From a virus: DNA of 64,000 nucleotides. Position numbers and translations under genes: made by a program. The stretch lies in the IMG/VR virus record IMGVR_UViG_3300010399_000004, positions 1 through 64,000 of that record; one strand, 5' to 3'. Positions 204-59,631 of this stretch are shown piece by piece. The notes beneath the pieces were generated by a model that was not told the DNA's origin, ran no database searches, and worked only from the letters and a program-made list of their open reading frames with translations. Position 1 is the first letter of the stretch, and the number at the start of each line of letters is the position of its first letter.

Positions 204-340
204 TCTTTGATTTTGAAAAGTTTTCAAATGAAAAATAGAAAAATAAACATTTGCAAAATATCTATTTCTATTTTAATAGTTTCCTGCCCGTAAGGGGTAT
301 TACAAAACAACAATACAAAACCTAAAACAACAACGCTATT

Positions 341-1354
341 ATGAGCGCATCAAAACCAAGCCCCCGCGGGGCATCCAAACCCTCTCAGGCCCCATCCAGT
401 AACGGAGGGCCGAAAGGAGGAGCCCCTACAGGCTCATTCATGAAACGGGGCACCGCAGCTCTGGAAACTGCCCGACATACAGCAGAGCAATCTATGTCTG
501 GAGGCGGCCCCTGGCGCTTCTGGCTAAACGGGGATAAGACGAAATGGAAAAAGGATGCTGACGGCAATCCGAACAATGAAGCAGGAATCATCATTCTTGA
601 TCGCAGTCTGGATGATTTGGTGGGGTTCCCGGAACATAATCTCAAGATCGCGGGTAAGTTCGGGAACTTTGAATTGTGCCCAAAGGAATGGAGCCATTGC
701 CCCCTTTGCGATGCGGGGGACAAAGGATATTACGTTGTTATGTGTTCCATTTTGGTTCTGAAATCCTGGACCAGCAAAGACGGAAAGAAATCCGGCAATT
801 GCACCAAGATGCTCTTGCCTATCAAGTCTCAGCAAATGGGGAAGATGGAAGAGCTTTTCGCCGCCGCTATCAAAAAGTATGGCACGCTGCGGGGGGTGTT
901 CATGTATATGAAGCGGGACATGCATAACGCTAATTCTCCTGCCATTGGGGAGCCTTCTATCCTGGACAACGCCAGCATGTTTGATTTCTATACTGAGGAT
1001 GAATTGACTGAACAATACGGACACGCTGCGGAACTTTCGCCACAGGGCAAGGTTCTTAAAGCGCAGGACGAGGATATCAGCCCGTTTGTTTACGACGATA
1101 TTTTCAAGAAGCCGGACGCCAAGGATTTGCGTGCCCGTTACGGGGGGAAGATTCAGCCGGGCTCCGCTGCGGAAGCTGAGCAAGAATGGGGATCGGAGCA
1201 GGAAGGGGAGGATGAATTGCCGGGCGTTGCCGACGCCCCTGCGGCCCCCAGCCGTCCGGGCGGGGCAGTAGAGCAGAAGAGATCAGCCCCCCCGCGAAGG
1301 GGCGCAGCCGCCCCTTCCTCTGGTAATAAGGACCCGTTCGCCGCGGAGGAGTAA
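341..1354 (+). CDS. Putative single-stranded DNA-binding protein
   Basis: C..CPLC zinc-like motif, disordered N-terminus and acidic C-terminus ending DPFAAEE. Lies between primase and helicase. Confidence 0.55.
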   Translation: MSASKPSPRGASKPSQAPSSNGGPKGGAPTGSFMKRGTAALETARHTAEQSMSGGGPWRFWLNGDKTKWKKDADGNPNNEAGIIILDRSLDDLVGFPEHNLKIAGKFGNFELCPKEWSHCPLCDAGDKGYYVVMCSILVLKSWTSKDGKKSGNCTKMLLPIKSQQMGKMEELFAAAIKKYGTLRGVFMYMKRDMHNANSPAIGEPSILDNASMFDFYTEDELTEQYGHAAELSPQGKVLKAQDEDISPFVYDDIFKKPDAKDLRARYGGKIQPGSAAEAEQEWGSEQEGEDELPGVADAPAAPSRPGGAVEQKRSAPPRRGAAAPSSGNKDPFAAEE

Positions 1355-1367
1355 GAAACGATCAACG

Positions 1368-1398
1368 GCCCCGTTCCTGTTCGATCCGGGAACGGGGC
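1368..1398 (+). terminator. GC-rich hairpin after the SSB-like gene (terminator or mRNA stabiliser)
   Basis: Stem GCCCCGTTCC / GGAACGGGGC. No U-tract on the + strand. Confidence 0.4.
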
Positions 1399-1408
1399 AA
1401 CGAATAAA

Positions 1409-1621
1409 ATGATTAACAAAGATATAGAGAATGAATTGAAGCGCCTGATGGAATATCAGAGCGGTAGGCAGACTTGCGCAAATTGTGTTAATTTTGTCCC
1501 TACTGATTGTTCTGGTGATATGCATGCCAAACCTCAACATTGTAGGCTGAATCCAGTCTTTGATCTTCCTGTGGAGGAGCATGGTCGCTGCAAATTCTTT
1601 TCCTTAAAAAATAATAAATAA
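1409..1621 (+). CDS. Small Cys-rich protein (CxxC...C...C)
   Basis: TCANCVNF...HCRL...GRCKFF; packed between neighbouring genes. Confidence 0.6.
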   Translation: MINKDIENELKRLMEYQSGRQTCANCVNFVPTDCSGDMHAKPQHCRLNPVFDLPVEEHGRCKFFSLKNNK

Positions 1622-1623
1622 GG

Positions 1624-3099
1624 ATGAATGCAACGCTGTCAAATCTGCTCTGGCTTGAGGGGGTATCCGCCCCCGACAAGGCTATGCTGCGGAAACAAAT
1701 GACAGTGAATCCGCGGGGGTTTGAGGGGGAGTCTCCAGAACCCATTTGTTTGGTTCAGGAAGATTGCGGCAGAATCGGATTGCCTTTAATGGCAGGTTTG
1801 AAATTTTTTCAAACGCGGGGAGGGTATGCAACCCTTGCAGCAGCTTTCAAAGATGTGGATAATCGCTCAAGTGAAGGTCACGACATAAGTCGTTTTATTC
1901 GCCGCCGGCCCGCACCGAGGGATCAACGGCAGACTACGTTTTTTGAAGAGCTACCTAGAGAAGTGGGACGTAGAATAGCTGTATTTGCAGAAGCGCCGAC
2001 GGGCAGCGGCAAGTCGATTGCCGCGCTAAATGCTATTGCTTTGCTGGGATGTTCTGCGTTAGTAGTCGTTCCTCGCAAACGAATTGCAGCACAGTGGAGA
2101 AAGATGGCTATTGATTTTCTGGGTCTGCCTCCTTCCAGGATAGGAATGATAGAAGAGGGGAAGTTTGATTTCCGTCATAAGGCTATTACAGTAGCAGTTA
2201 TACATAATCTTGTAGGACGGGAAATTCCGGAAGGGTTTGCGGAGGCTTTCGGAACGGTGGTATTCGATGAAGTGCAGAATCTAGGTGCCAGATCATTTTC
2301 AGAATCTATGGGACGGGTTTATGCTCGTTATAGATTCGGCCTTACGGCTACCCCTGAGCGGGGGGATGGATGCGAATCCCTTTACTTTGATTATTTTGGC
2401 CGCCCCTCTGTAATATATCCCGGAGAAGCTTTGGCAGCTACTTGTCGGGTGTTTGACTTCTTTTGGTCATTTCAAAAGAAAGTTGGAAAGCGTGGCCGGG
2501 TTACGAATGATATTAATCGTAAACCGCGGGCTATTCTCAAGAAGATTCTTATTTCGTCTGGACGCAGGAATAAGATGATTGCAGGGATGATCAAAAAGTT
2601 ATATGATGCGGGGAGGCATATTCTTGTAATAGGGGATGAGATATTACACCTTCAAGTTTTGATGGGTATGGTATCCGAGGAAGGAGTTCCCGCCGACGAT
2701 TGCGGACTTTATACTGGTTCCTATGTGGATGTCGAGGGGAAGCAGAAGAAAATGAACGATGAGCAACTTGATTGGGTGCGGGACCACAGCCGCGTAATCT
2801 TTGCTAGTTACGGTATGGCTAGTGAAGCGTTGGATATTCCCCGATTGGATTCGGGGATTGATGTGACTCCGCATTCCAAAGGAATTCAAATGATAGGAAG
2901 AATTCGTAGAAATATGCCGAATAAGCCCACCCCGCTTTGGTTGACCATACGGGACAGGGGTATAAGAATTTTTGAGCAAGCATGTGCATCGCGGTTGCGG
3001 GAGTTCCGGGAAAACAATGTAACCGTTATTGAACATGGGCAGAAAACCAAAACACAAAACCAAAGTGGAAGCGCAACAGCAGAAGAGAAAGTGGCGTGA
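1624..3099 (+). CDS. Superfamily 2 DNA helicase
   Basis: Walker A APTGSGKS, motif II FDEVQ, motif III GLTATP, motif VI QMIGRIRR. Confidence 0.92.
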   Translation: MNATLSNLLWLEGVSAPDKAMLRKQMTVNPRGFEGESPEPICLVQEDCGRIGLPLMAGLKFFQTRGGYATLAAAFKDVDNRSSEGHDISRFIRRRPAPRDQRQTTFFEELPREVGRRIAVFAEAPTGSGKSIAALNAIALLGCSALVVVPRKRIAAQWRKMAIDFLGLPPSRIGMIEEGKFDFRHKAITVAVIHNLVGREIPEGFAEAFGTVVFDEVQNLGARSFSESMGRVYARYRFGLTATPERGDGCESLYFDYFGRPSVIYPGEALAATCRVFDFFWSFQKKVGKRGRVTNDINRKPRAILKKILISSGRRNKMIAGMIKKLYDAGRHILVIGDEILHLQVLMGMVSEEGVPADDCGLYTGSYVDVEGKQKKMNDEQLDWVRDHSRVIFASYGMASEALDIPRLDSGIDVTPHSKGIQMIGRIRRNMPNKPTPLWLTIRDRGIRIFEQACASRLREFRENNVTVIEHGQKTKTQNQSGSATAEEKVA

Positions 3100-3553
3100 T
3101 TCCTCTAATACAAAGAGGAAGGCGCAATACCGGGAAGATTCCTCTTACCGGGAGAAGGTGCGTGAGCAGTCCCGCGAAACAGGCCGAAAGGCTCATGGCG
3201 GATTGCAGGCGGATAGGGCGCATATTATAAGGGATTCGTTATCCTCTTTGCCAACGCATTCTGTTATGCGGAAGTTGATTAATTCTGATTTGGAGATTCC
3301 AACTTTCACCACTGCGGAGCTTACCCCGCTGATGGGGATTTCCAATGTTGTTATCGTTCATGGGTGGCAAAGAACGGGGAGGTTTCCCCGCCCGCGACTG
3401 GAAGCAATTGTGGGCCGGACTCATGCCCATGTTTATACTTTGCAGGAAGCGGAGAAGTTACTGTCGGTAATGGCCATGCACTTTTCTTCCAAGAACTATC
3501 TTAACCAATCCGACGAGGAAACCGTTGCTTTGTTGAATAAAGCTATGCTTTGA
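3035..3553 (+). CDS. Basic DNA-binding protein with MerR/excisionase-like HTH
   Basis: FTTAELTPLMGIS...GWQRTGRFPRP followed by a wing-like HVYT. Its stop codon lies inside a palindrome copy. Confidence 0.55.
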   Translation: MGRKPKHKTKVEAQQQKRKWRDSSNTKRKAQYREDSSYREKVREQSRETGRKAHGGLQADRAHIIRDSLSSLPTHSVMRKLINSDLEIPTFTTAELTPLMGISNVVIVHGWQRTGRFPRPRLEAIVGRTHAHVYTLQEAEKLLSVMAMHFSSKNYLNQSDEETVALLNKAML

Positions 3554-3596
3554 AAAGTTTTCAAATCTTGATCAACCTACACACACATACAATAAT

Positions 3597-5728: not shown

Positions 5729-6112
5729 ATGAATTTGAGGACCCCAAAGCGTTTGAAAAGTTTTCAAACCGTTTCTCATTGGCGCAGCCCTCGGCAGGAA
5801 AAAGAACTTGCCGAGAGGCTGGGAGGTAAGCGCACACCGGGAAGCGGCAATAAAGATATGAAGGGGGATGTGAGGGTAAAGGGGATTACTCGGATTGAAA
5901 CTAAAACCACTACCAAGAAATCATACAGCCTTACGTTATTGGATGTTTGCAAAATAGAAACGGCCGGGTTATCCGCGGGGGAAGTTCCTGCGATGGTTAT
6001 CGAATTTCTGAACGATAAAGGAAAGCCCCTCCATTCGCTGTGCGTTATTCCTTCCTGGGCTATTGATCTTCTGTTGAAAAATGAAACCGGAACTGAATCT
6101 AAAGACACCTGA
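5729..6112 (+). CDS. PD-(D/E)XK endonuclease, Hjc-like resolvase
   Basis: QEKELAERLGGKRTPGSG...KGDV...IETKTT. Confidence 0.7.
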   Translation: MNLRTPKRLKSFQTVSHWRSPRQEKELAERLGGKRTPGSGNKDMKGDVRVKGITRIETKTTTKKSYSLTLLDVCKIETAGLSAGEVPAMVIEFLNDKGKPLHSLCVIPSWAIDLLLKNETGTESKDT

Positions 6113-7249: not shown

Positions 7250-7683
7250 GACCCTGGGAATATAATATCGAAGGGGAGGGGGAGGACCCTCTCCGTCGTG
7301 CATTGAATTTTGCAGCCTCTGCTGATTGGCATGGATTGCCAAAATTTATTGTCTCGAATTATTACGTTATATACATCAAGCGAGACAAGTGGGGCTATTA
7401 CTCGCGGGCAGAGGAAGGTGGCCACGAAACGCTATTCATGGGATCTGAACTGACCAATTCAGAAAAGCCCGGCACCGGCGTAAAGCTTGCGTTCCCTCAC
7501 GACATTGATGCCACCTTTGATTTCATCAGGCGCTGGCTGAAACACGCGAACCGTGGCCAGAAGCATGACACGGACGGCGATAACCAGCCAGGATGGAGAT
7601 TGTTTACCCCTCCCGGAATCGAAGGATCGTGCTGCTATCCGTCGCTCGCTATACAGGCCATTTGGATCATTTACGGAAAATAG
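7246..7683 (+). CDS. Hypothetical protein
   Basis: ORF coupled by ATGA overlap; contains HDTDGDNQPGWRLF. Confidence 0.6.
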   Translation: MRPWEYNIEGEGEDPLRRALNFAASADWHGLPKFIVSNYYVIYIKRDKWGYYSRAEEGGHETLFMGSELTNSEKPGTGVKLAFPHDIDATFDFIRRWLKHANRGQKHDTDGDNQPGWRLFTPPGIEGSCCYPSLAIQAIWIIYGK

Positions 7684-7685
7684 CA

Positions 7686-8249
7686 ATGAGACCCCCACGA
7701 CGCCAGCCCCCTTCCCTGCCCTGCATGATAGGGATTGATCCTTCTCTGAATGGCACGGGGGTTTGTATCCGCCAATCCGGGGGAACGTATCATTTTTTTC
7801 ATTTACAGCCATCGAAAGGTAAAATCGGAATCCCCCGCCTTCTTTGGCTGCGGGAGCAATTGAATGGGGTTCTGATGCTTGACAAGATTGCTGAGGGTTT
7901 GACCTTGGCTATAGTAGAGGGATACTCAATGGGCTCAGCTTCCCGCCGGGAAGCGATGGGGGAGTGGGGAGGAGTTTTGCGTTGCTGTTTGGCGGACGCA
8001 GGGATTCCGGAATTGATCACGGTTCCCCCTCAGACCTTGAAGAAATTCGTTATCGGTCATGCCAAACCGGGCGATTCGGGGAAGGACGTGATGCTTTTGA
8101 AAACTTTTCAAAGGTGGGGGCAGAGCTTCAATGATTCGGATCAGTGCGACGCCTTCTGCTTGGTCAAGGCTGGGGAAGCGATTATTTCCGGGGTCGGGGA
8201 CCCCGCCGGGGGACTAAAAAAGGCTTCCCGCGAAAAAATTTCGGCCTGA
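7686..8249 (+). CDS. ruvC: RuvC-like Holliday junction resolvase
   Basis: IGIDPSLNGTG, IVEGY, VPPQTLKKFVIG, SDQCDA. Confidence 0.85.
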   Translation: MRPPRRQPPSLPCMIGIDPSLNGTGVCIRQSGGTYHFFHLQPSKGKIGIPRLLWLREQLNGVLMLDKIAEGLTLAIVEGYSMGSASRREAMGEWGGVLRCCLADAGIPELITVPPQTLKKFVIGHAKPGDSGKDVMLLKTFQRWGQSFNDSDQCDAFCLVKAGEAIISGVGDPAGGLKKASREKISA

Positions 8250-8413: not shown

Positions 8414-9526
8414 ATGAAAACGAAAACTGCTACCTCCGCCGCCGCTACTTACTCCGTTGGAGACAAAGTGATCTTCGGCAAATATGGGAAAGAAACCAAA
8501 AAGGCCGACCAGGTCTTTACCGCCGGCGAAACGCTGGAGGTTATTGAGATTCCTGATGACGCCACTGAAATTTTGCTGGGCCGCCCTGGCGCAGACCCGG
8601 AAGTGCAGGGGTGGGCTTTCCCCGCGGAAATCTCCGGCCTGGCCGATACATCGGAAACTCCGGCTAAGGCCGGAGCTAAGAAGATCGTCGCCAAGGGCAA
8701 GGGCGGGGCGGTCTCTGAATCCACTACCGCCGACGGAATCACGGTGGTTGCGGAAGATGGCCCCGTCACCGGAAAGGCAGTCAGCAAGAAAGCTGAGAAG
8801 GCCGAAGCAAAGGCCGCAGAGCCCGTGCTCAAGCACGCACCTTCCGTCGCCAAGCTCATTGCTGATGGAGTCAAGGGAACCCTTAAAGCGGCCCTGGAAT
8901 TGGTGGAATCCATTTCCACCCGCTTCTATCAACTCGGGGGCGTGCTCTATGAGATCAAAAGGAATAACTATCATGAAACCGTCCGCGGTGAAGATGGTGA
9001 ATTGCTCAAGGGCCAACCCGGCTTCGCGGCCTACATCGCATCCATCCTTAACGTGGAGTATCGGATGGCGCAGCATTACATCAACGTGTATGCCGTCACC
9101 CGTGCAGCAGGTATCCCCGAAAGCAAAATCGCGGGGCTCAAATTCACAAAGGTTCTGCACCTGATTCCACTCATCGAAGGGAAGGTTATCGACACCGAAA
9201 ACTGGGATGAGTGGGCCACCAAAGTCAAGAACCTAAAAGGCGATGCCTTCAAGGACGAGGTTTCTACGGCGATGAAAAACGCCAACATCGAACGCGGGGC
9301 ATCACGCGGAGCCACTGCCAATCAAGCCCGGTTCATGTTCGTCCTTTTCGATGATCGGGCCAAGGTCGTTCGGAAGGCGCTTGAAATGGCTATCAAGGAG
9401 CTTCCCCCGCTGGAAGATGGCGCGGAGCATTCCAACAGCGAGGCTTTCGATCACATCGTTTCTGAATGGCTCGCTTACAAAAAGAACGAAAAGTCTGCGG
9501 CCAAGTCCCAGAGCAAAGCGGCCTGA
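8414..9526 (+). CDS. Putative DNA-binding protein: SH3-like N-terminus, Ala/Lys linker, DUF3102-like helical/HTH domain
   Basis: FYQLGGVLYEIK...GFAAYIASILNVEYRMAQHYINVY resembles a DUF3102-type HTH. Has its own promoter (TTGCAA 8307, 16 nt, TAAATT) and terminator. Confidence 0.55.
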   Translation: MKTKTATSAAATYSVGDKVIFGKYGKETKKADQVFTAGETLEVIEIPDDATEILLGRPGADPEVQGWAFPAEISGLADTSETPAKAGAKKIVAKGKGGAVSESTTADGITVVAEDGPVTGKAVSKKAEKAEAKAAEPVLKHAPSVAKLIADGVKGTLKAALELVESISTRFYQLGGVLYEIKRNNYHETVRGEDGELLKGQPGFAAYIASILNVEYRMAQHYINVYAVTRAAGIPESKIAGLKFTKVLHLIPLIEGKVIDTENWDEWATKVKNLKGDAFKDEVSTAMKNANIERGASRGATANQARFMFVLFDDRAKVVRKALEMAIKELPPLEDGAEHSNSEAFDHIVSEWLAYKKNEKSAAKSQSKAA

Positions 9527-9571: not shown

Positions 9572-9616
9572 AAGCGGCCCCGCCCTTCCCAAAAGGGGGC
9601 GGGGCTTGCTGTTTTC
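9572..9616 (+). terminator. Rho-independent terminator
   Basis: GCCCCGCCCTT-CCCAAA-AGGGGGCGGGGC followed by TTGCTGTTTT. Confidence 0.75.
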
Positions 9617-9631: not shown

Positions 9632-9700
9632 TTTGAAAAGATTTCAAATTTCACTTTACAAAACATCCCTTTCGAGTATTCTTGATCCGTAATACAAATC
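9632..9700 (+). promoter_or_regulatory. Repeated promoter cassette, copy 1
   Basis: Palindrome variant, then TTTACA (9655), 16 nt, TATTCT (9677), then GTAATACAAATC. Confidence 0.8.
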
Positions 9701-9717: not shown

Positions 9718-9933
9718 ATGAAAGCAAACCAGCTAGGTAAAGATCAATCCACCGTTAAGCACATTAATCGCGCTTATCTCGAAATGGAAGCGATGAAAGT
9801 TGGGTTTACTAAAGTTATCAACGGAATGGTTACGACGAAATGGAGTGAAGGAAAATTCGAGGTTGGGACATTCGGAAAGGCGACCGTGACCATCGACGAA
9901 GCCGCAGACAAGCTGATGATGGAAGCAGTTTGA
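9718..9933 (+). CDS. Hypothetical early protein
   Basis: ORF downstream of cassette 1. Confidence 0.65.
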   Translation: MKANQLGKDQSTVKHINRAYLEMEAMKVGFTKVINGMVTTKWSEGKFEVGTFGKATVTIDEAADKLMMEAV

Positions 9934-9978
9934 AAACTTTCAAATTATACTTTACAAAGAATGTATTTCAGGTATTCT
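9929..9978 (+). promoter_or_regulatory. Repeated promoter cassette, copy 2
   Basis: TTTGAAAACTTTCAAA, then TTTACA (9951), 16 nt, TATTCT (9973). Confidence 0.75.
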
Positions 9979-10896: not shown

Positions 10897-10901
10897 GAAA
10901 G

Positions 10902-10969
10902 TTTGAAAAGTTGCAGATTTCACTTTACAAAACATCTAGATGGGGTATTCTTGATTCGTAATCCAAATC
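10902..10969 (+). promoter_or_regulatory. Repeated promoter cassette, copy 3
   Basis: Degenerate palindrome, then TTTACA (10924), 16 nt, TATTCT (10946), then GTAATCCAAATC. Confidence 0.8.
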
Positions 10970-10979: not shown

Positions 10980-11174
10980 ATGAGCGCCGAACAAATCTCC
11001 AAGCTGAACAAAATTGCAACCAGTCCAATGCTGAGCGGGCAGTATGCCCGCAACGTTGAATCCACCTATCAAAGTTTGGTGGAGAACAATGAGAGCCGCA
11101 GGAAGCGGGGGCTGCCGGAGTTTATGCCCTCCTACGAATTGGCTGAAAAGATTGTGCTCAACGGAATGCGTTGA
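10980..11174 (+). CDS. Hypothetical early protein
   Basis: ORF immediately after cassette 3. Confidence 0.6.
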   Translation: MSAEQISKLNKIATSPMLSGQYARNVESTYQSLVENNESRRKRGLPEFMPSYELAEKIVLNGMR

Positions 11175-11178
11175 ACCA

Positions 11179-11394
11179 ATGAATGAGTCGCAGAAAGGAG
11201 CCTGCGCTTCGTGCTATTGGGCAAGGAAGCGGGATGGAGTCAAGTTAACAAGCTATACTGGAGCGGGGGTTGGAAGCTGTCTGAACCCAGATATTGCAAC
11301 AGGCACGACATTCATTCCACGTAAGGAGCCGGACATTACATTTCCAGCAAACGATTGCTGGAAATCGAATCGGATAAGCGAACCGAAATCTTGA
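11179..11394 (+). CDS. Small Cys-rich protein
   Basis: CASCYW...GSC...DCW. Confidence 0.5.
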   Translation: MNESQKGACASCYWARKRDGVKLTSYTGAGVGSCLNPDIATGTTFIPRKEPDITFPANDCWKSNRISEPKS

Positions 11395-11395: not shown

Positions 11396-11446
11396 TTTGA
11401 AAACTTTTCAAATTCCACTTTACAAAGCATCCATTCTCAGTATTCT
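11396..11446 (+). promoter_or_regulatory. Repeated promoter cassette, copy 4
   Basis: Exact palindrome, then TTTACA (11419), 16 nt, TATTCT (11441). Confidence 0.8.
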
Positions 11447-12875: not shown

Positions 12876-13072
12876 AATACACACTTACATCATTACAGCG
12901 CAACCGCCTCCGTTCCCTTTGCCGCAGATATCCTGCTGCTTCTGTTGAGGAACTTCATTATTTGCTTAGGTCTCCGCGAGAGCGGAGGAAAGAAGCTGTG
13001 GGGGAGATTTTCTTTATGCTGCTTTCCGGAGTAATAGTTTACGGAGTATTGATTATCATTTTTGGGGTATGA
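12872..13072 (+). CDS. Small membrane protein
   Basis: C-terminal hydrophobic helix; ATGA overlaps on both sides. Confidence 0.55.
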   Translation: MKYTLTSLQRNRLRSLCRRYPAASVEELHYLLRSPRERRKEAVGEIFFMLLSGVIVYGVLIIIFGV

Positions 13073-13734
13073 ATATAAATTCCCCCGGCGTTCTTGAATC
13101 CTTAAACGAATCCGTGCGGATGTCTTGGCAGGATTACGTGGACGGTTTACTTGCCAGGAAGAAAGAGCGTTACGAAAAAGAAGCCAAAGCGGGGGAGGCG
13201 TTTGCTCAATCTTTGGGCGATATAGTAAAATCGAAAGCTCCAGCCCCGCCTTCTCAGTTATCGGTTCGATTTGAAAACTTTTCAAAAGAGGGAAATCCAA
13301 TTCCATTATTATATAATGGATTGATTTCCTTTACTGATGGGCAGAAAGGAGAATTTCCTATTTGGGTTTACTGCACTATGTTATGGACTAGTAATGATCT
13401 TATGTTGGATAGGGCAGAATCGATTGCGGATAATATTGGAAAAGTTTGGGGAAGCTGGCAAGTGCGATCCTGCTTGCATTTGGAAGAGTCTTCGGAAGTA
13501 TTTGAATGCGTATGGACTCTGAAAGATTTTCCTAAAGCGCTAAGGTTGCATGAACATGAACGATACAGGGATTATTCCTCGCACGAAAAGATTAAAGCGC
13601 GGGGGATTGTCAGTCATTTTGACGCCTGGCTGGTATCTTGTTATAAAACGCGGGGGGATTTTCAATTGCTTCCGGCATCAGAATTGTTGAAGAGACTTTT
13701 GCCTAAGAAACCTAGACGCAGCATTACGTTATGA
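13069..13734 (+). CDS. Hypothetical protein
   Basis: 221-aa ORF with ATGA overlaps. Confidence 0.65.
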   Translation: MNINSPGVLESLNESVRMSWQDYVDGLLARKKERYEKEAKAGEAFAQSLGDIVKSKAPAPPSQLSVRFENFSKEGNPIPLLYNGLISFTDGQKGEFPIWVYCTMLWTSNDLMLDRAESIADNIGKVWGSWQVRSCLHLEESSEVFECVWTLKDFPKALRLHEHERYRDYSSHEKIKARGIVSHFDAWLVSCYKTRGDFQLLPASELLKRLLPKKPRRSITL

Positions 13735-14992: not shown

Positions 14993-17014
14993 ATGAACGA
15001 ATCTGAATTTTTCAATGCAGTGACCAAAGAATTGATTTCCTCACGTCAAAAATATCCCCATACAGGGGACCCGAAAACTGCCGCTATGGTTGAAGAAGCG
15101 GGGGAGGTTGCCAAAGCTATTATGGATGAGCCCTGGGAGCGGGTGGAAAAAGAATGTGTGCAGCTTGCTGCAATGGCTGTCCGGCTTTGTCTTGAGGGGG
15201 ATTCCACTTTGGAGGATTACCGCAGAAGCAAGGGGCTTGATTTGCCTTTCATCCCAAAGCATCCGGAAAAAACAAAAGCCGGAATACCTATTGCGCCGGA
15301 AGGCTTTGAGTGGCATAGATCCGGGGGATGGAATCCCAAACAATTTACACAGGGATATCGTCCCCTTCTGCTCGGAGAGGCAACTAAGAAAGGGGATGAA
15401 TGGTGGTATATGGGCAGATGGAATAAAGTTCCGGAGTCTGAGTTGGGTAAAAAAGTCGGGAGGGAAACAAGGCATCATCGAACGCTTAGGGGGCTTCTAG
15501 ACGAGGTTTTAGCTCCCAGACAGCAGAAAGTCCCATCCAAAAGTTCCGGAGAGCCTACAGCACCGTTAGCTAAGGTTAGCGGGGCATCCGGGGAGGTTTC
15601 CGGGGAGGCGAAAATGCAAGAGTTTGAAAAGTTTTCAAATCCTGACAATTCTACTACCCATTATTGTGAAGCCTGCGGGGTCCATCATAATACTCCATCC
15701 TCCCAGGAAGAAAAGGCCTTATGGTCCTGCGATGCCTGCGAATGGCCTGGGTGCAGCAAGCCCACCTTTTTTGCTTATCGGAACAAGCTTCTATGCAGGG
15801 ACCATTTCATTATTACGAACGGGGCTCCATCTAAGCCGCGAGATGAGGACGTTGCTGTTATAGCTGGGCTTGTGTCCAGATTGCGTAAAGCAGAGCGCAG
15901 CCTCCGACTTGCAGGATATACAGATGCGGGGGGAGAATTATGGAAACCTCCCGTTGCAAGCGTAACGGGTAGGACATCATCAACGCAGGAGAATCAATCT
16001 AATATCCCCAAAAGGGAAGTTACGGCGGGAATGTTAATCGAAGCAACCCGCCTTCTGCAAGCGAACGGCTGGGAATGCAGTATTGTGCATGATTCAATAA
16101 TTATTACTGCTGCACCGATAGAGTCGGGGGAGGAATCAAAACAACCCCTTTCATTTGATCCGACTAAAACGGTAAATGTTAGCAAGGAATTTTACATTCC
16201 CGGGAATCATATTCCCGGGTTCCGTCCGCTTATAGAAGGGGAGCGGTGGCACCGGATAGATGGATGGAAAGCGGGGGACCTTCCAGAAGGTAAACGTCCC
16301 ATGCTTTACGGAAGCGATGGACCGTCAGAACAGGATTTGTTCCTGGTGAAGCCCGATGATAAAAAATCGGGGGAAGGAATCCAAATCCAAACTACCGAGA
16401 GCAAAGCCGGGGAGCATAAAAAGTCGGCGGGTGACAAACTAAACACAGAGGATACAATCAAACAATGCCAAGAGCAGGCAGACAAGTTGCGGGGGGAAGG
16501 ATGGACTAAAAAGGACTTTGCACGGGCACTCAGAAATGAGCTTGAAACTCCTTTACAACCTCCTTCTGACTTGAAACAAATTACGGAATCCAAGATTAAA
16601 GAGGAAGCTCATCCCGTTTCCAGCACAATATCACATCCTTCTTTGGTATGGGTAGCGGAAAGATTTGATCTATCAGGCACCTTTTACGGGGAAAAAGACC
16701 AGAGGGGATTTGCAGCTACGTCAATTGTTTATGCAAAAAAATGGCCTAATCGGGAAGCTGTTCTTAAATGGAGAGACTCGTTTGCCAAACCGTCTTACTT
16801 CAAAGATTATTATTGGGCTGCTCCCTGGTGGGTTGATGCTGGGGGGAAAATCCGCCGGGCTGTAATTGATTCTGAGACCGGGGAGGTTTGTCCCTTATCT
16901 CCCGCGATAGTTTCTTTCTCCCCCGAGCAGAAGAACGAGCCCCCTTCCGAAGCTACTGGATTTCCCATTCATCGGGCCAAGTATAAATCAGGAGGAGCGG
17001 GAAATCCGGGTTGA
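14993..17014 (+). CDS. Mosaic protein with N-terminal MazG-like (all-alpha NTP pyrophosphatase) domain
   Basis: MVEEAGEVAKAI...EKECVQLAAMAVR, followed by a string of short unrelated-looking modules. Confidence 0.6.
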   Translation: MNESEFFNAVTKELISSRQKYPHTGDPKTAAMVEEAGEVAKAIMDEPWERVEKECVQLAAMAVRLCLEGDSTLEDYRRSKGLDLPFIPKHPEKTKAGIPIAPEGFEWHRSGGWNPKQFTQGYRPLLLGEATKKGDEWWYMGRWNKVPESELGKKVGRETRHHRTLRGLLDEVLAPRQQKVPSKSSGEPTAPLAKVSGASGEVSGEAKMQEFEKFSNPDNSTTHYCEACGVHHNTPSSQEEKALWSCDACEWPGCSKPTFFAYRNKLLCRDHFIITNGAPSKPRDEDVAVIAGLVSRLRKAERSLRLAGYTDAGGELWKPPVASVTGRTSSTQENQSNIPKREVTAGMLIEATRLLQANGWECSIVHDSIIITAAPIESGEESKQPLSFDPTKTVNVSKEFYIPGNHIPGFRPLIEGERWHRIDGWKAGDLPEGKRPMLYGSDGPSEQDLFLVKPDDKKSGEGIQIQTTESKAGEHKKSAGDKLNTEDTIKQCQEQADKLRGEGWTKKDFARALRNELETPLQPPSDLKQITESKIKEEAHPVSSTISHPSLVWVAERFDLSGTFYGEKDQRGFAATSIVYAKKWPNREAVLKWRDSFAKPSYFKDYYWAAPWWVDAGGKIRRAVIDSETGEVCPLSPAIVSFSPEQKNEPPSEATGFPIHRAKYKSGGAGNPG

Positions 17015-17155: not shown

Positions 17156-17226
17156 TTTGAAAAGATTTCAAAATTTCACTTTACAAAGTATCCCTTTCGA
17201 GTATTCTTGAGTTGTAATCCAAATCC
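17156..17226 (+). promoter_or_regulatory. Repeated promoter cassette, copy 5
   Basis: Near-identical to copy 1; TTTACA (17180), 16 nt, TATTCT (17202). Confidence 0.8.
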
Positions 17227-17251
17227 AACCAAAAACAGAAATCCAAAGCAA

Positions 17252-19460: not shown

Positions 19461-19476
19461 AAACTTTTCAAATCAT

Positions 19477-43209: not shown

Positions 43210-44148
43210 ATGTCCCAATGGAACTACAGACCATGCATTTGCCCTCGGCATCCAATAACAAGGATTCCGGCCCCTTCTTTACTGTTGGATAAAGCAAGGG
43301 AAAGCACCCCATTTGATAATGACTGGAATCAGAAAAAGCTCTTGAAGCTTATAGCTGATATGATTCGTGCTCACAGGGTAGCCGTTGCCCGCGGTGTAAA
43401 AGCTTTGGTGTTAAAGCTTTCGTTATTCTTTTCCCGGCAGTCCACAATGATTGAGGATGGGTTTCGCCTTAGCTATTCAAATCACTCTGGCAACCATCAT
43501 GGCGCAGTAGTGTTGTCGGCAGATACGCACGAAGCGTTATGGAGAGGAAATATCGAAAGGGTATTCAGAGCTACGGCCCTGGAGTTTGATGCTTTGCTTT
43601 TGAAAATTTTTCAAAGCACCGCAGATATTTCCTATGCCGCAACTTTGTCTCTGCTTGGATTGATCGAATCCATGATAGGCCGGGCGCGAGTAAATCAGCG
43701 GGTAAGAAGACTGCTTCAATCCAGTCCCGGAATACTGGAGACTGCAAAAATTCGCTGGTATTCTTTGATCCATAAATTTGTGCGGGAGGATAAGCTGGAT
43801 GTGGCCCAAACCTTGGCAGCAACGATTAGAAAAATAGATGAAACTACTCGCGCACATATCCCTACGATTGCCCGCACGGAAGCAGGAAGGGCGGCTGACG
43901 AGGGGCGTAAACAGGGACTAATAGACTCACAAAAGGTGAAAACTATATCAGTAATTGGCTGTCAGGCCCGCGAAAGGAATTCTCCGCAGTATCGGGGGGA
44001 ATCTACATGCAACATCGAACGAGTGCCTATCTACGATATTGATTTACTAGAGTTCCATCCTAACCATACTGGCACAATAGTTCCCTCAGAGTTTGTGGAC
44101 CGCATACAGCCTCCGATTCCTGGGCTGGAAAGAGAGCCGGGGGAGTAA
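43210..44148 (+). CDS. Head morphogenesis protein (MuF/SPP1 gp7-like)
   Basis: TIARTEAGRA...HPNHTG; located after the portal. Confidence 0.7.
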   Translation: MSQWNYRPCICPRHPITRIPAPSLLLDKARESTPFDNDWNQKKLLKLIADMIRAHRVAVARGVKALVLKLSLFFSRQSTMIEDGFRLSYSNHSGNHHGAVVLSADTHEALWRGNIERVFRATALEFDALLLKIFQSTADISYAATLSLLGLIESMIGRARVNQRVRRLLQSSPGILETAKIRWYSLIHKFVREDKLDVAQTLAATIRKIDETTRAHIPTIARTEAGRAADEGRKQGLIDSQKVKTISVIGCQARERNSPQYRGESTCNIERVPIYDIDLLEFHPNHTGTIVPSEFVDRIQPPIPGLEREPGE

Positions 44149-44785: not shown

Positions 44786-44820
44786 CTGCGGAGTTTGAAA
44801 ACTTTTCAAAACATAACATA

Positions 44821-47390: not shown

Positions 47391-47556
47391 GTATTGGAAT
47401 ATAAAAAGGATAAAAAGGATTTGAAAACTTTTCAAATCGTGGTGTTGTAGGCGCGTCGGCCAGCTTCATGCAAAACAGAAACCGCCAGTGGGAGTAATGC
47501 CAGCCTGTCTGCCCGCCTTCCCAATAAACAACCAAAACACAATCATACGTAACTAA

Positions 47557-49733: not shown

Positions 49734-49801
49734 GTCAAATTTTCGCAGATTGACTCCCGGAAGGGAACGTGTATGCTCTCGTTACACACATTCAGAACAT
49801 C

Positions 49802-50188
49802 ATGATTCGCTGCAAATATAAAGGGAAGGAACCGCAAAATCTGGCCGTCGGCCCCGTCGTTAAGGGGTCCATTATTATGCTTCATGAGGAAGAAGCATTT
49901 ACTCTGCGGGAGGATGCGCAGTGGGAATTGATGCCAGAAGCTTTTCCTCCCGGAGTTCCTGAGAATCTGCGGCCGATTCGTGGGAAGCATTTCGATTTGA
50001 CTTCCCTTCCCTGGAAGAACAAAAGGTTATTCAATGCGGTCAAAACTTTGGGCCGTTCTGTTCTTGTAAAGGGGTTGGCACAGATGGAAGCTTTGGGGTT
50101 GCCGGTCCCTCCAATCAGTAATACCAACGATACCGCAGATTTGCGGGAAACGTTTCTTGAGTTGGGGAGGAAAGCTGCCTGGATTTGA
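49802..50188 (+). CDS. Hypothetical head-region protein
   Basis: Follows TTGACT (49750), 16 nt, TATGCT. N-terminus resembles that of 44198..44785. Confidence 0.6.
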   Translation: MIRCKYKGKEPQNLAVGPVVKGSIIMLHEEEAFTLREDAQWELMPEAFPPGVPENLRPIRGKHFDLTSLPWKNKRLFNAVKTLGRSVLVKGLAQMEALGLPVPPISNTNDTADLRETFLELGRKAAWI

Positions 50189-50213
50189 AAACTTTTCAAA
50201 ATAAATAACTAAA

Positions 50214-52643: not shown

Positions 52644-52788
52644 TTTTAGGGCAAAAATTTTTCAGCTTCCCGGCTCAAAGTCGGGTTTGAAAAGTTTTCA
52701 AATCTGACAAAATCTCGGAAGAAACGCGTTGACGCCCCCTTCTTTAGTGGCACAATCTACCTTAATCACTTTAATCCTTTTCATTATT

Positions 52789-53136
52789 ATGGCCTGCGGC
52801 ACTATTGTTGGATCAGCACTCCAGTTTGGGGTATCTGTTGACGAAGCTTCTCTCGTTACGCAAAGCGTTCGGGCCACTCGAAAAAATGACAAAAAGGAAG
52901 CCCGCGATAAATGCGGCATCGTGGTGTCTGTAGCATACTACAACCCTACGGCAGACATTGAAATCGAGGGATTGGGAACGTCGGCAGCGGAAGTGGGGGC
53001 TGCTTTAGCCCTGAGCGGTGCATTTGGGCTTGGAAGTGGAAAAATCTGCATTGATGAAATTTCTGTGGAAAAAGGAAATGAGGAATTTACCAAGTCCAGT
53101 ATCAAAGCTACGCAATATGGCGGCATTGCTGCATAA
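52789..53136 (+). CDS. Probable major tail tube protein (minimal, 115 aa)
   Basis: Beta-rich protein positioned before the chaperones and tape measure. Confidence 0.55.
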   Translation: MACGTIVGSALQFGVSVDEASLVTQSVRATRKNDKKEARDKCGIVVSVAYYNPTADIEIEGLGTSAAEVGAALALSGAFGLGSGKICIDEISVEKGNEEFTKSSIKATQYGGIAA

Positions 53137-53221
53137 TTGAAAACTTTTCAAACTCTGTGCCGTCGCATTCTTTGTGGTGCGACAGACGCCTGGCTCTCTT
53201 ATATGTGTCCGGGTAATTCAA

Positions 53222-53698
53222 ATGAACAGACAATCTACTACAACGAATCCGCAGCCCCTTCCTGATACCTACGGCGATACGCTGGAGCCAGGAACCGAGG
53301 TTATATTCGTGGGAGATAAAAGACTGGCGGCTGCGCTTATCGCTGTTGGGGTTCATCTTCGGAAGGACCCTCCATATGTTCAGGTAATACGTCCGGACGG
53401 TTCCACGCAGACGATATTTCATTTTCTACCATTGGATTCGGACGGAGTTCTTAACACAACGGAGCTTATCAAAGCGTGGGGGCAGGACCTTGATTTTATC
53501 CAAGCCAACCCCCTTCACCCCTTTACCTTTGCAATGTGTGCTCTGCGCAATTACCAGAGTATATTGGAGCATTTGCAAAACGATGTTCCCTGGGTCCAAT
53601 TTGAAGGTATGAAGGATGGAAAGAAAGTGAACCTTCTCGTTAAGAAGGGGAGCAGGAAAGAGGAAGCCGCCCGCAAACGTGGGTTGCGCCAATTTTGA
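53222..53698 (+). CDS. Hypothetical tail-region protein
   Basis: ORF flanked by palindrome copies at 53136 and 53694. Confidence 0.55.
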   Translation: MNRQSTTTNPQPLPDTYGDTLEPGTEVIFVGDKRLAAALIAVGVHLRKDPPYVQVIRPDGSTQTIFHFLPLDSDGVLNTTELIKAWGQDLDFIQANPLHPFTFAMCALRNYQSILEHLQNDVPWVQFEGMKDGKKVNLLVKKGSRKEEAARKRGLRQF

Positions 53699-53725
53699 AA
53701 ACTTTTCAAATATACACCTATACCT

Positions 53726-57102: not shown

Positions 57103-58731
57103 ATGCCTGCCCCCCGCATACAAATCAATCACGATGGGCTGCAAAAAGCATTCAATGCTTTAGCGGATTATTTGGATTCTAAAGAAAAAGGAGGGGGAAG
57201 TATATCGCTTACCGGAGATGATGTAATTGAAGGTCTGCCTGGTAAATTTTCTATTGCTTCACAAGCTAAAGATTCTGAACTTGGAGGCATATGGCAGCTT
57301 AGGAGAAATAAAGACAAACTCTATATTTCTCCTGGATATGTGCATGTCTATACGTCGGGGGGTTCAAAACTTGCGGCGGTTTATCCACCTGATCTTGAAA
57401 ACGTATCTGTATTTAACTCAATCCGCCCCTTCTGGAATCTTCCTTTAGCCGAGGAAGAAACATATAAAGTGTATTTGGTAGTTGCTCCGGAAGAGGATGA
57501 CGGGAATCCTACGGAGGAGACAGGAACCGTTACGGGGGCTGATCCCAACACAGGTGCGGGTCCATCCAGTTCAGCTACCGCGGCATGGCTGGAGCTTATG
57601 CTATCTTCTGTTTCTACGGAAGATGTATTTCCGGAAGATGCCAAGGTTATTCTGCTTCATAAGTTTTCTACGAATGCGGAGGGGTATCCAATTTTTTCTG
57701 ATTCAACCCAAAAACTGTTTTCAGAGCCAGTCATTGTGCCTGATGTGATACGCTGGTGTCATATTACACAAGCGAGCGTGGACACAGTCACAGAGGAGGA
57801 AGGAAGCGGAACGACGGGGACTGTAAATATAGCGGAGGGGTGTGTTATGGTAGGTGATGCGGGGGCAGTAGATGAAACAGACCCAGTCCCTTCTAAAGTC
57901 TTAACGAGATTAATTGTAGATGATGTTTTTTTGCCCGCGGAGCTGGAAGATGCGGAAGTTGTTCACGAAGATAAAATCTATGTTAAGTTAACCTATACAG
58001 TAAATGAATATGGCGATACTTCGACAGTTCGACTTTTGGAATGCACCAGTGCAGAATACTTAATTACTAGTTCTGCGCCGGAAGACGATGATACCGCGTC
58101 TCACATTCTAATAGGGGAGATTTCTATTGTGGATGGAGTAATGACAATTGAGCATCATTGGCCGGGTGTTATTACTGCGCCAACGTTAACCCTGCCTGTC
58201 GAGGGCACGGATGATGCAGCGATTTCTCAATCTTGTTATTGGGCAGCGGAGATTATTGCCCCAGGAGCTATTAGCATAGGAAGAGGTCTTTTGATCTATT
58301 GGGAATACTATTGGGTTACAGAAACACTTTCTTCTGTAACTCAGGGTTTGATAACGTCTTTCGCAGAAACCGGAGGCACTCCAAGTGCATCTGATATTCA
58401 GGTAGGAGTGGCAGTAGACCCTATAGCAGATGGAGATTTTGTATGGCTGTCGGTGCCCGTAGGCTGGGCGTCTCGACAGGTTCTTACCAGTGAATATACC
58501 GCGGCTGAACCAAATCACCATCATGAATACTACGAAGATTACAGTCGGATAAATTTAAGCGGTGATGCTCCTTTTCTTGATTTTGGGGATGAATTACCTG
58601 CTCCCGTTGAGGGTGGGGATACCATATACCCGATAGGGCAATATGTTAATTCTACTACTTGGGTTCAATTTCATATAGGTGCTCTTATTATTCCGTCGTT
58701 CGCTACGAATAATAGCACACCCAATGAGTAG
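57103..58731 (+). CDS. Tail tip/structural protein with about three repeated beta domains
   Basis: Recurring pattern: ISPGYV..VYL, IAEGCV..IYV..LIGE, IGRGLL..VWL..PIGQ; acidic. Confidence 0.55.
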   Translation: MPAPRIQINHDGLQKAFNALADYLDSKEKGGGSISLTGDDVIEGLPGKFSIASQAKDSELGGIWQLRRNKDKLYISPGYVHVYTSGGSKLAAVYPPDLENVSVFNSIRPFWNLPLAEEETYKVYLVVAPEEDDGNPTEETGTVTGADPNTGAGPSSSATAAWLELMLSSVSTEDVFPEDAKVILLHKFSTNAEGYPIFSDSTQKLFSEPVIVPDVIRWCHITQASVDTVTEEEGSGTTGTVNIAEGCVMVGDAGAVDETDPVPSKVLTRLIVDDVFLPAELEDAEVVHEDKIYVKLTYTVNEYGDTSTVRLLECTSAEYLITSSAPEDDDTASHILIGEISIVDGVMTIEHHWPGVITAPTLTLPVEGTDDAAISQSCYWAAEIIAPGAISIGRGLLIYWEYYWVTETLSSVTQGLITSFAETGGTPSASDIQVGVAVDPIADGDFVWLSVPVGWASRQVLTSEYTAAEPNHHHEYYEDYSRINLSGDAPFLDFGDELPAPVEGGDTIYPIGQYVNSTTWVQFHIGALIIPSFATNNSTPNE

Positions 58732-58776
58732 AAGGCGGCGCAACGATGCAAACTTGACCCCTTGGTAGAGCGTATA

Positions 58777-59151
58777 ATGATTGATAATATATCTCACCTT
58801 TGGACGGTTCTCCATGTAAAGGCTGCGGGTTGGTTAGATGTTCCGGAGTCGGAGGATATTTTAGAGATGCAACAATGGTTGATCTACTTTGAGAGTAAGT
58901 TTCCTGTCGGCTGTCCATGTAAAAAAGAATGGCGGGAAGCCATCGAATTATGCCCACCTCCTTTACAGGAAGGGCGGGAAGCTTTTTTCCAATGGACTAT
59001 AGCGTTACATGATCGAATCAATGTTCTGTTGGGGAAACCGATTTGGGTAGAAACTTCAAAGCAACATATTCTTTTGACTTCTCTATTTGCTGACCCCCGA
59101 TTTGCGCATAGAGAAGCAGACTCGGCGGTGCATAAAGAAATTGGGATTTGA
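58777..59151 (+). CDS. Erv1/Alr-family FAD sulfhydryl-oxidase-like protein
   Basis: LWTVLH...FPVGCPCKKEW...REAFFQWTIALHDRINVLLGKP matches the W..LH / C / W....H...N..LGKP signature. Confidence 0.78.
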   Translation: MIDNISHLWTVLHVKAAGWLDVPESEDILEMQQWLIYFESKFPVGCPCKKEWREAIELCPPPLQEGREAFFQWTIALHDRINVLLGKPIWVETSKQHILLTSLFADPRFAHREADSAVHKEIGI

Positions 59152-59186
59152 CGCCCCGCCTTCCCGTTGTAGGATGCTTAAACAAA

Positions 59187-59489
59187 ATGGCATTCTTTAA
59201 TTCACTTTCTGCGGCCATTACGGCGGTTGCCAACGCCCTTGCAGCCCGCGAGCATAATGTATCATTGAGAATGTTAACTGAAATTGGAAATTCTTTATAT
59301 GAAGCCAAAAAGGAAATACTCAATCTTCATGATGGTGCTGCTAATGAGCGGGATATTGATCTTGCAGAGTTGCGCCTCCAAGCTCTCGAAGAGCAAGAGC
59401 GACGCATTCTCTCCGCCGCCGCCCGCACCGCGTCTGTTGACGCTCCCGGAGTCGTTCCGCCCAAAGCCATACCAGTCAGTGATCAGTGA
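59187..59489 (+). CDS. Probable inner-membrane spanin
   Basis: Weakly hydrophobic N-terminus and coiled coil; overlaps a lipoprotein gene. Confidence 0.5.
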   Translation: MAFFNSLSAAITAVANALAAREHNVSLRMLTEIGNSLYEAKKEILNLHDGAANERDIDLAELRLQALEEQERRILSAAARTASVDAPGVVPPKAIPVSDQ

Positions 59490-59577
59490 AGAAGGGGAGT
59501 GGATAACGCAGCCGGGAGAAGTTTGGTGGAGCCACAAGGCCTACATGGATCAGGTTGCTAAAAGATTCATTCCCTGA
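59299..59577 (+). CDS. Outer-membrane lipoprotein, probable o-spanin
   Basis: MKPKRKYSIFMMVLLMSGILILQS-C lipobox; Pro-rich; overlaps the previous gene in another frame. Confidence 0.6.
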   Translation: MKPKRKYSIFMMVLLMSGILILQSCASKLSKSKSDAFSPPPPAPRLLTLPESFRPKPYQSVISEEGEWITQPGEVWWSHKAYMDQVAKRFIP

Positions 59578-59631
59578 GTGATTGACTTTATCCCCCGCGG
59601 AATGTAATCTCGGTTTGAAAACTTTTCAAAC

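Follow-up and report, generated by a model that had tools for sequence, protein, structure and literature searches.

The window analysed here, that is the first 64 kb (64,000 nucleotides) of the 87,739-bp IMG/VR virus record IMGVR_UViG_3300010399_000004, is studded with copies of a 17-bp palindrome, TTTGAAAASTTTTCAAA, in which two invariant 7-bp inverted arms enclose a 3-bp centre. This array is real, strongly non-random and conserved, and represents a new spelling of a lattice of palindromes that extends throughout a clade of phages. Judging from the features of the sites, we rate it somewhat better than even that the palindromes are double-stranded sites at which a sequence-specific protein encoded by the phage would dock, binding the two identical half-sites. 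An earlier reading of the DNA (the original prediction) had proposed that a dimeric protein binds along the whole genome and that site density matters. As a whole that interpretation is partly supported, and its core, genome-wide docking sites for a dimeric protein, provides the best fit to our tests, with invariant arms and a free centre.

Within the window, 26 exact copies of the motif were found as compared to 0.00 expected from 100 shuffles, 19 of them with a central C and seven with a central G on the + strand, which reproduces the original count with all 26 copies at their positions. Allowing up to three mismatches raises the number of sites in the window to 32 (0.54 expected). The whole record, which carries a 123-bp terminal repeat, contains 34 exact copies, while the reversed-pattern control yields none; at up to two mismatches there are 45 sites, 34 of which are letter-perfect, and at up to three mismatches 46. 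Variation is restricted to the central triplet and the outermost pair of the 17-mer. Positions 2–7 and 11–16, in turn, show a single substitution and a single one-base deletion among the 46 sites.

The sites occur about once per 2 kb in this genome and once per 2–4 kb clade-wide, and they are spaced more evenly than chance would allow, as the original prediction had suspected. The coefficient of variation (CV) of the spacing is 0.61 for the 45 sites, as compared to 0.97 for uniformly random positions (none of 5000 simulations was as low; P<0.0002). When sites are instead drawn at random from the 181 ends of open reading frames (ORFs), a CV of 0.92 is expected (P=0.0006), and the 34 exact sites alone have a CV of 0.57 (P=0.0002). 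The same evenness is seen in all six full genomes compared, that is the present one (G000) and five long relatives (G001–G005), with CVs of 0.42–0.65 versus ~0.95 (P≤0.0104 against uniform placement); for the five relatives, P is ≤0.0086 against random ORF ends. Together with phage SM1 and a 109,558-bp record introduced below, 8/8 genomes tested are evenly spaced. The original prediction had further regarded the fibre region after 59630 as bare, and interpreted this and another gap as acquired DNA lacking the mark. These two views do not hold: the next copy lies at 64557, leaving a 4.9-kb gap, shorter than the one of 5.9 kb between 53694 and 59614; the gaps in question are unremarkable, and a copy lies inside the inserted 7-deazaguanine module.

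Long ORFs lie almost exclusively on the + strand, and the sites avoid gene interiors yet are tolerated there. Nine of the 45 sites are located deep in an ORF, where 34.1 would be expected. A site was counted as stop-associated when the stop of an ORF of at least 50 amino acids falls inside the site or at most 7 nt before it; this applies to 19/45 sites, as compared to a mean of 2.7 and a maximum of 7 at random positions. At least 15 sites finish 0–15 nt ahead of an ATG. In the seven copies named originally as providing a stop codon (3549, 19456, 22575, 27876, 29108, 50184 and 53694), the TGA of the motif does terminate an ORF of at least 50 amino acids. The roughly ten intragenic copies that had been announced were likewise recovered, at 1797, 5752, 8096, 13270, 15623, 24561, 26940, 35013, 39228 and 43599, and so were the peptides LKSFQ, LKTFQ and FENFS forced by them into coding sequence: the RuvC-like protein contains LKTFQ, QueD contains LKSFQ, and ORF 13069..13734 contains FENFS. 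In QueD, the segment DDP-YLKSFQ aligns without gaps to a solved QueD, residues being replaced without insertion or deletion. Homologues can lack the intragenic site, as illustrated by the resolvase, which reads PKR-LKSFQ-TVSH here and PKR-LKGMH-SVSH in relatives. As far as such alignments tell, intragenic copies originate by substitution, not by insertion.

A further group of sites is linked to promoters. Eight sites, some of them degenerate, head a cassette composed of the palindrome, 6–8 nt, TTTACA, 16 nt, TATTCT and a conserved leader. Five of the eight cassette promoters were called by a promoter scan (9655-9682, 9951-9978, 10924-10951, 11419-11446 and 17180-17207); the remaining copies lie at genome positions ~67920, ~72270 and ~84720. 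Four cassettes hold an identical variant palindrome with the centre AGA, suggesting that they have spread by duplication. The copies at 11396, 9632 and 17156, claimed originally to sit just upstream of a promoter, are located 6–7 nt upstream of TTTACA-16-TATTCT, in agreement with the scan. Less firm are the -10 boxes assigned to the sites at 21142 (TAATTT) and 59614 (TAATCT): both hexamers are visible by eye, but the former was not called by the scan, which did not cover the latter. Directly behind one cassette promoter, a gene at 9961-10896 encodes a type IB topoisomerase (Pfam Topoisom_I, 2.6e-17, plus the bacterial TopIB N-terminal domain), which is unusual for a tailed phage and absent from the five long relatives.

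Two simple roles in transcription could be dismissed. Intrinsic terminators in this genome consist of a GC-rich stem and a T run, and none of 26 terminator-like matches in the region 9001-29000 coincides with a palindrome. Since such a classical GC-rich terminator (9576-9616) directly precedes the site at 9632, the palindrome is not the terminator of this phage. Neither is the site a sigma-70 promoter: there is no -10 element at a fixed distance, and several sites stop 1 nt short of an ATG.

A DNA search retrieved no close cultured relative, and the portal protein matches reached at most 26% identity; the portal search included eight Mycobacterium phage records among its matches, all below 60% identity. 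The exact 17-mer is present in 76 stretches of a viral collection, six of which (L005, L011, L018, L027, L037 and L058) are relatives with ~65% nucleotide identity in terminase, portal or capsid genes. These six carry the 17-mer at a similar density, exemplified by six sites in 13.7 kb of L018. A portal-profile search extended the set to 41 related loci, some with the same motif and others with different palindromes, and at 43–63% portal identity relatives may have either. Scanning relatives for motifs revealed spellings of their own, partly at the same gene junctions: each of the five long relatives has its own 17-mer within the frame TTTG-N9-CAAA, and the six full genomes (G000–G005) possess 45, 37, 24, 31, 23 and 18 sites, respectively. 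Stop-associated sites amount to 8/37, 9/24, 3/31, 11/23 and 9/18 in the five relatives, where 0.8–3.1 would be expected; G002, G004 and G005 show a clear excess and G001 a weaker one, while that of G003 lacks significance. A site is found at most 200 nt past the PolA stop in 5/6 genomes, ~120 nt before the capsid gene in 3/6 (126 nt in G001, 117 nt in G003) and at the 52729/53174 junction in 4/6, and the site ahead of the portal gene is also present in relatives. Because positions are shared while the spelling differs, it follows that the spelling changed in place and jointly across sites. The G+C content of the relatives ranges from 41 to 63%, and they probably have different hosts for this reason.

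When the comparison was anchored on the conserved resolvase, a wider clade of 42 loci emerged. Most of these have 13–14-bp palindromes in a TG...CA frame, falling into the classes TGAAAT, TGCAAT, TGCAAC, TGCAAG and TGAAAC; throughout the clade, TG...CA is what stays invariant in each spelling. Cultured phages are represented as well. A 93,191-bp record, identical to Pseudomonas phage SM1 across the 14 kb compared, contains 31 sites (control 0) with a CV of 0.53 (P=0.0004), 14 of them inside ORFs as compared to 26.3 expected. In a 109,558-bp record, whose coordinates match Rhizobium phage L338C, there are 54 sites with a CV of 0.65 (P=0.0006), and 21 are inside ORFs where 45.3 would be expected. 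UF_RH6, which belongs to the same genus as SM1 (Samunavirus), is reported to be lytic (PMC10281142). The marker proteins are shared by Rhodobacter, Aeromonas, Agrobacterium and Vibrio phages, the sites having been counted only in the Pseudomonas aeruginosa and Rhizobium phages. In the literature searched, supplementary files aside, the lattice is not described for this clade; PMC8601537 has no occurrence of 'palindrom'.

One site has a special position. The O-like initiator gene at 76042..77394 of the record (PHROG 678; L245 12042-13394) contains an internal palindrome in 6/6 genomes. Of 28 core families, as defined by all-against-all BLAST of the six genomes, no other shows this; PolA follows with 3/6. 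In G000, G001 and G003, direct repeats are located 20–110 bp downstream of this palindrome: in G000, the palindrome at 76419 is followed by three 21–23-bp direct repeats at 76534-76600, and this layout recurs, with related iterons, in G001 and G003. This arrangement suggests that the region is probably a replication origin with one lattice site built in. The initiator was also considered as the protein reading the lattice and was set aside, its gene holding separate iterons; as these differ from the palindrome, it is the iterons that the initiator probably reads.

A double-stranded site is favoured because several properties point to it. The central dinucleotide is free across the 54 sites of the 109,558-bp record, and several clades use perfect even-length palindromes. 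In G001, either half-site may vary without the other (position 7 is A or C, position 11 is T or G), with no pairing between the two, and the half-site variants of SM1 are likewise chosen independently, 11 in the left and 10 in the right half, without orientation bias. Copies within one genome share an identical sequence, and a number of them occupy promoter-linked positions. Moreover, two sites start 3 nt after a -10-like hexamer, so that only half of the palindrome would be included in the transcript.

The original prediction had named the proteins encoded at 8414..9526 and 3035..3553 and ParB-like proteins as potential binders. The first two remain the best candidates, whereas the ParB-like proteins were dropped: ORF 35126..35977, which lacks a Pfam match and is represented by a homologue in just 2/5 relatives, was rejected as the reader. 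The gene 8414..9526 forms a unit of its own, closed by the terminator at 9576-9616. Its family is present at 39/42 clade loci and in 6/6 full genomes, including the locus of genome G008 and the loci L291, L295 and L317, and a site is located at most 400 nt upstream of the gene in 4/6 genomes. The Lys/Ala linker of the protein is histone-H1-like, and its homologue in SM1 is gp050. Neither a ParB N-terminal (CTPase) domain nor a ParB helix-turn-helix was detected by Pfam and PDB profiles in this protein or in 14 relatives, and an Atlas look-up returned nothing above 0.9. The 8414..9526 protein may be considered the likeliest single reader, though our confidence in it falls short of even.

The product of 3035..3553, assigned to PHROG 19880 'transcriptional regulator', belongs to a family whose profile (29 members) matches the DNA-binding domains of CarA/CarH, BrlR and MerR/CueR (2jml, 9e-7; 5c8d (CarH), 1.6e-6; 3whp, 4.8e-6), with weaker rows for MerR and CueR and a sub-threshold one for RacA (E 0.19). 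The family resides between the helicase and RecA genes in 6/6 genomes and at 37/42 clade loci (33 at E<1e-5), and a protein database search returned 11 relatives. Its presumed recognition helix is alike within motif classes and different between them, with the exceptions L304 and L310. That this MerR-type protein could act as an alternative reader or as a partner is a possibility we regard as doubtful; what probability remains goes to another protein or to both candidates acting together. An AT-hook was also entertained: the N-terminal GRP motif occurs in 7/7 genomes with TTT/AAA outer arms, but this is confounded by descent, and L291 and L295 keep the arms without the gene, so that the idea was discarded. 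In SM1, an ORF of 169 amino acids, MerR-type by profile, shares sequence with the 3' end of the gene annotated as helicase. The annotation covers just the final 62 amino acids of this ORF, as gp044 (L321 7175-7363), and gp044 may for this reason be mis-called in GenBank.

Several observations weigh against docking sites read by one of these proteins. The central base is biased on the coding strand, with C34:G2 in G001, T22:A2 in G002 and C18:G2 in G003; G004 has 19 pyrimidines and 4 purines, the bias is much weaker in G000 (C26:G17), and SM1 shows none. Such a bias counts against the proposal because a symmetric dimer cannot sense orientation. The 8414 family has no PDB profile match to a known DNA-binding domain (best E 0.35) and nothing credible in Pfam among five members; ten further members gave one sub-threshold match, to DUF3102 (E 0.08, 13.6 bits versus a cut-off of 24.4). 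As to the MerR-type family, L304 and L310 break the K/R rule in its helix. G008, a 96-kb, 89%-complete genome with 31 sites, retains only the N-terminal domain and has no winged helix, and the gene is absent from the syntenic slot in L291 and L295. Because these three cases break its presence wherever the lattice occurs, the MerR-type protein is weakened as the reader. Finally, both candidates track the motif class, as would any vertically inherited gene.

The central-base bias is what a rival explanation accounts for best. The palindrome could form a hairpin in RNA or single-stranded DNA, with a stem of 6–7 bp and a loop of 3 nt, acting in intercistronic processing or translation coupling, or in strand-specific priming or loading on the lagging-strand template. 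The loop would explain the bias in G001, G002 and G003, as a symmetric dimer does not, and in G000 the sites at most 15 nt from an ATG are C13:G2, a post hoc observation. Many sites lie exactly between a stop and the next ATG, and the 2–4-kb spacing is within the range covered by Okazaki fragments. However, the centre is free in the 54 sites of the 109,558-bp record, SM1 lacks an orientation bias, positions 7 and 11 of G001 do not covary, and the stem in G000 would be almost entirely A-U. Sites also lie upstream of promoters or overlap likely transcription starts, and a structure as such requires no common sequence, yet the copies in a genome share one. We therefore consider a hairpin unlikely. 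The same low standing applies to replication or recombination docking, that is to secondary origins or loading points for helicase or recombinase, with a reader from the SSB-helicase-RecA module. Both candidate readers are indeed encoded in a replication-recombination module (single-stranded DNA-binding protein (SSB)-like 341..1354, helicase, RecA/UvsX, two resolvases, exonuclease), the spacing is even, and the initiator gene holds a site in 6/6 genomes, 20–110 bp before iterons in G000, G001 and G003. But just one site per genome adjoins iterons, the iterons differ from the palindrome, and a pure replication signal would not need to be depleted from gene interiors or to hug stops and promoters.

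The three other explanations are much less probable. If the sites were landing places for a host nucleoid protein or regulator, each phage copying the operator of its own host, the different spellings in relatives of 41–63% G+C would make sense. Yet the exact 17-mer is single-copy at every locus among the matches listed from 185,579 species (one genome per species), and no genome stood out among these matches. In addition, host operators are usually degenerate whereas 34/45 sites here are letter-perfect, and two phage-encoded candidate readers travel with the lattice, making this a very improbable solution. We find it similarly hard to believe, and slightly more so, that the sites are linkers for module exchange, at which a phage recombinase swaps or inserts cassettes via identical border 17-mers. 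The 7-deazaguanine module is flanked by two sites where relatives have terL, site and portal, and the Cluster O mycobacteriophage paper gives two cases of indels between repeats, but few if any of the repeats are reported there to be involved in rearrangements between genomes (PMC4351075). Selection for evolvability could not maintain 34 perfect copies or even spacing in 8/8 genomes; module exchange would more plausibly be a by-product than the main function. Least probable of all is stoperator-type immunity, in which the repressor of a temperate phage binds all sites to silence the prophage. The distribution does resemble that in Cluster A, with many sites, short intergenic gaps and gene ends (PMC9283540, PMC4351075), but the sites here are symmetric and stoperators asymmetric and oriented (PMC4351075), no integrase was found among the ~50 ORFs scanned, a part of all ORFs, and the SM1 genus-mate UF_RH6 is lytic by report (PMC10281142). 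The latter report also makes global repression of a temperate phage, one of the roles suggested originally, unlikely.

Returning to double-stranded docking sites, the protein would land on each palindrome and then occupy or organise the neighbouring 1–2 kb. Even spacing would in this case provide coverage of the whole chromosome, similar to KorB acting from its operators and RacA from its ram sites; with a KorB-like reach of up to 1.5 kb, a spacing of 2–4 kb would cover everything. Likely consequences would be the insulation or repression of transcription units and the marking or organising of replicating phage DNA. More tentatively, and with the odds against it in our view, the lattice could be the skeleton of a phage 'chromatin', in which an abundant protein, likely of the 8414..9526 family, coats, marks or folds the whole replicating chromosome during lytic growth, using the evenly spaced sites as nucleation points. 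If so, such a coat would distinguish phage from host DNA, insulate transcription units and incorporate the origin, and all 30–50 sites would be respelled together with changes in the reader when lineages diverge. A large, old group of tailed phages of 75–110 kb keeps 20–55 near-perfect, evenly placed palindromes, all of which are rewritten once the spelling shifts. This implies a genome-wide DNA-protein system under strong selection, for which no phage model has an explanation. The answer would tell what one or two widespread core proteins, now labelled 'hypothetical', do, and it could show by which means lytic phages mark or organise their chromosomes. Cultured members such as SM1 and L338C make the question directly testable.

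The sites of the window, the candidate reader genes and the associated signals are compiled in the table. Among the neighbouring genes, the region 341-8249 encodes a T4-style recombination set comprising a UvsW-like helicase, RecA/UvsX, an endonuclease VII/HNH-like protein, a Holliday-junction resolvase, a Cas4-like exonuclease and a RuvC-like resolvase; 341..1354 may encode a gp32-like SSB, an Atlas lead only. The 7-deazaguanine block (35013-40697; QueD-like protein confirmed) is inserted between terminase and portal and flanked by two palindromes, whereas relatives have terL, the site and portal in succession without the block. The large terminase carries a LAGLIDADG/Hint intein (window 32332-34731), and the terminases of relatives are without this insert. 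A second intein, with an HNH domain, resides in a conserved AAA ATPase (L245 700-3180), which is adjoined by a DUF1257 protein (L245 3997-4515); both proteins are core in the six genomes.

Table. Palindromic sites, candidate reader genes and transcription signals in the window (window coordinates).
Position	Feature	Strand	Sequence	Context
212..228	site		exact, centre G	intergenic; 8 nt past stop of ORF 3..203, 21 nt before -35-like TTTGCA
1797..1813	site		variant, 2 mismatches, centre TTT	within helicase gene 1624..3099
3035..3553	candidate reader 2	+		MerR-type winged helix, basic N-terminal domain; between UvsW-like helicase and RecA/UvsX gene
3549..3565	site		exact, centre G	TGA is stop of MerR-type gene 3035..3553
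5752..5768	site		exact, centre G	about codons 9-14 of resolvase gene (ATG 5729)
8096..8112	site		exact, centre C	within RuvC-like gene 7593..8249 (LKTFQ)
8414..9526	candidate reader 1	+		370 aa; small N-terminal beta domain, Lys/Ala-rich linker, conserved C-terminal helical domain
9576..9616	intrinsic terminator	+	GC-rich	closes 8414..9526 unit
9632..9648	site		variant, centre AGA	follows terminator 9576-9616, precedes cassette promoter 9655-9682
9655..9682	cassette promoter	+	TTTACA-16-TATTCT	more copies from 9951, 10924, 11419, 17180
9929..9945	site		degenerate, 3 mismatches, one base shorter	ahead of cassette promoter 9951-9978
10901..10916	site		decayed, left half intact	ahead of cassette promoter 10924-10951
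11396..11412	site		exact, centre C	1 nt past stop of 11044..11394; 6 nt before promoter 11419-11446
13270..13286	site		exact, centre C	within ORF 13069..13734 (FENFS)
15623..15639	site		exact, centre G	within ORF 14993..17014 (FEKFS)
17156..17172	site		variant, centre AGA	7 nt before cassette promoter 17180-17207
17612..17628	site		exact, centre C	abuts stop of 17207..17611; ATG 11 nt downstream
19456..19472	site		exact, centre C	TGA is stop of 18090..19460; ATG 4 nt downstream
21142..21158	site		exact, centre C	3 nt after -10-like TAATTT (by eye); 3 nt before ATG
22575..22591	site		exact, centre C	TGA is stop of 22229..22579
24292..24308	site		exact, centre C	spans gap from TAG stop at 24291 to ATG 24310
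24561..24577	site		exact, centre C	final codons of 24310..24582; 1 nt before ATG 24579
26940..26956	site		exact, centre G	within ORF 26503..27024 (LKSFQ)
27876..27892	site		exact, centre C	TGA is stop of 27602..27880; ATG 12 nt downstream
29108..29124	site		exact, centre C	TGA is stop of 28609..29112; ATG 3 nt downstream
31645..31661	site		exact, centre C	intergenic past 31166..31588; head of ORF 31646..32335
35013..35029	site		exact, centre C	codons 3-8 of small ORF 35007..35207; left edge of 7-deazaguanine module
39228..39244	site		exact, centre G	within QueD-like gene 38947..39420 (LKSFQ)
40697..40713	site		exact, centre C	1 nt past stop of 40090..40695; 72 nt before portal ATG 40786
43599..43615	site		variant, centre T	within ORF 43210..44148
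44794..44810	site		exact, centre C	intergenic; ATG 10 nt downstream
47420..47436	site		exact, centre C	121 nt before capsid gene
50184..50200	site		exact, centre C	TGA is stop of 49769..50188; ATG 13 nt downstream
52686..52702	site		exact, centre G	intergenic
53136..53152	site		variant, first base A	touches stop of 52729..53136
53694..53710	site		exact, centre C	TGA is stop of 53174..53698; ATG 15 nt downstream
59614..59630	site		exact, centre C	3 nt after -10-like TAATCT (by eye); 1 nt before ATG

Known systems offer working analogies for the lattice, with no family membership established. The stoperators of Cluster A mycobacteriophages are repressor sites that number in the tens, lie in short intergenic gaps and at gene ends, and block transcription elongation (PMC9283540, PMC6550527). 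They are asymmetric, oriented with transcription and bound by the monomeric immunity repressor of temperate phages, whereas the sites here are palindromic and the genus-mate of a relative is described as lytic. Gp36, a MerR-family DNA-binding protein of the lytic mycobacteriophage D29, represses phage genes located downstream of where it binds; it recognises GC-rich direct repeats at a single genomic site rather than a lattice of palindromes (PMC12266134).

RacA of Bacillus subtilis, a MerR-superfamily winged-helix protein, reads the 14-bp palindrome TGACGCCGGCGTCA via the terminal TG/CA steps; its ram sites occur in 25 chromosomal regions, and the protein also coats DNA non-specifically to organise and anchor it (PMC4914108). 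The MerR-type winged helix of candidate 3035..3553 and the TG...CA palindromes would be RacA-like features. However, ram sites cluster around the origin and are not distributed evenly genome-wide as the lattice is (PMC4914108), the RacA match to the 3035..3553 profile is the weak one given above, and G008 lacks the winged helix. KorB loads at the OB operators of plasmid RK2 and reaches targets up to 1.5 kb away; its operators are dispersed palindromes, some far from promoters, and the small DNA-binding protein KorA cooperates with it (PMC11790492). The dispersal of palindromic sites at and away from promoters is a trait of KorB/ParB-type systems that is seen here, but KorB is a CTPase clamp of the ParB family and 8414..9526 and its relatives have no ParB match.

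The closest published layout belongs to the Cluster O mycobacteriophages, Corndog and its relatives, and the word 'undescribed' in the original prediction applies only partly for this reason. These phages, which are not obviously temperate, carry a 17-bp dyad repeat, 5'-TGTTCGGNNNCCGAACA, organised as 7+3+7 with a TG start and a CA end; there are 34 copies with invariant arms and a variable centre, about one third of them in genes, and a dimeric binder was predicted while the function was left open (PMC4351075). They represent another phage group with another host, the sites become denser towards one genome end, and the paper reports no spacing statistics, spelling changes between relatives or candidate reader (PMC4351075). 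Nevertheless, the Cluster O repeat has in common with the lattice described here the same 7+3+7 layout, the TG...CA ends and a distribution of more than 30 copies over the whole genome.

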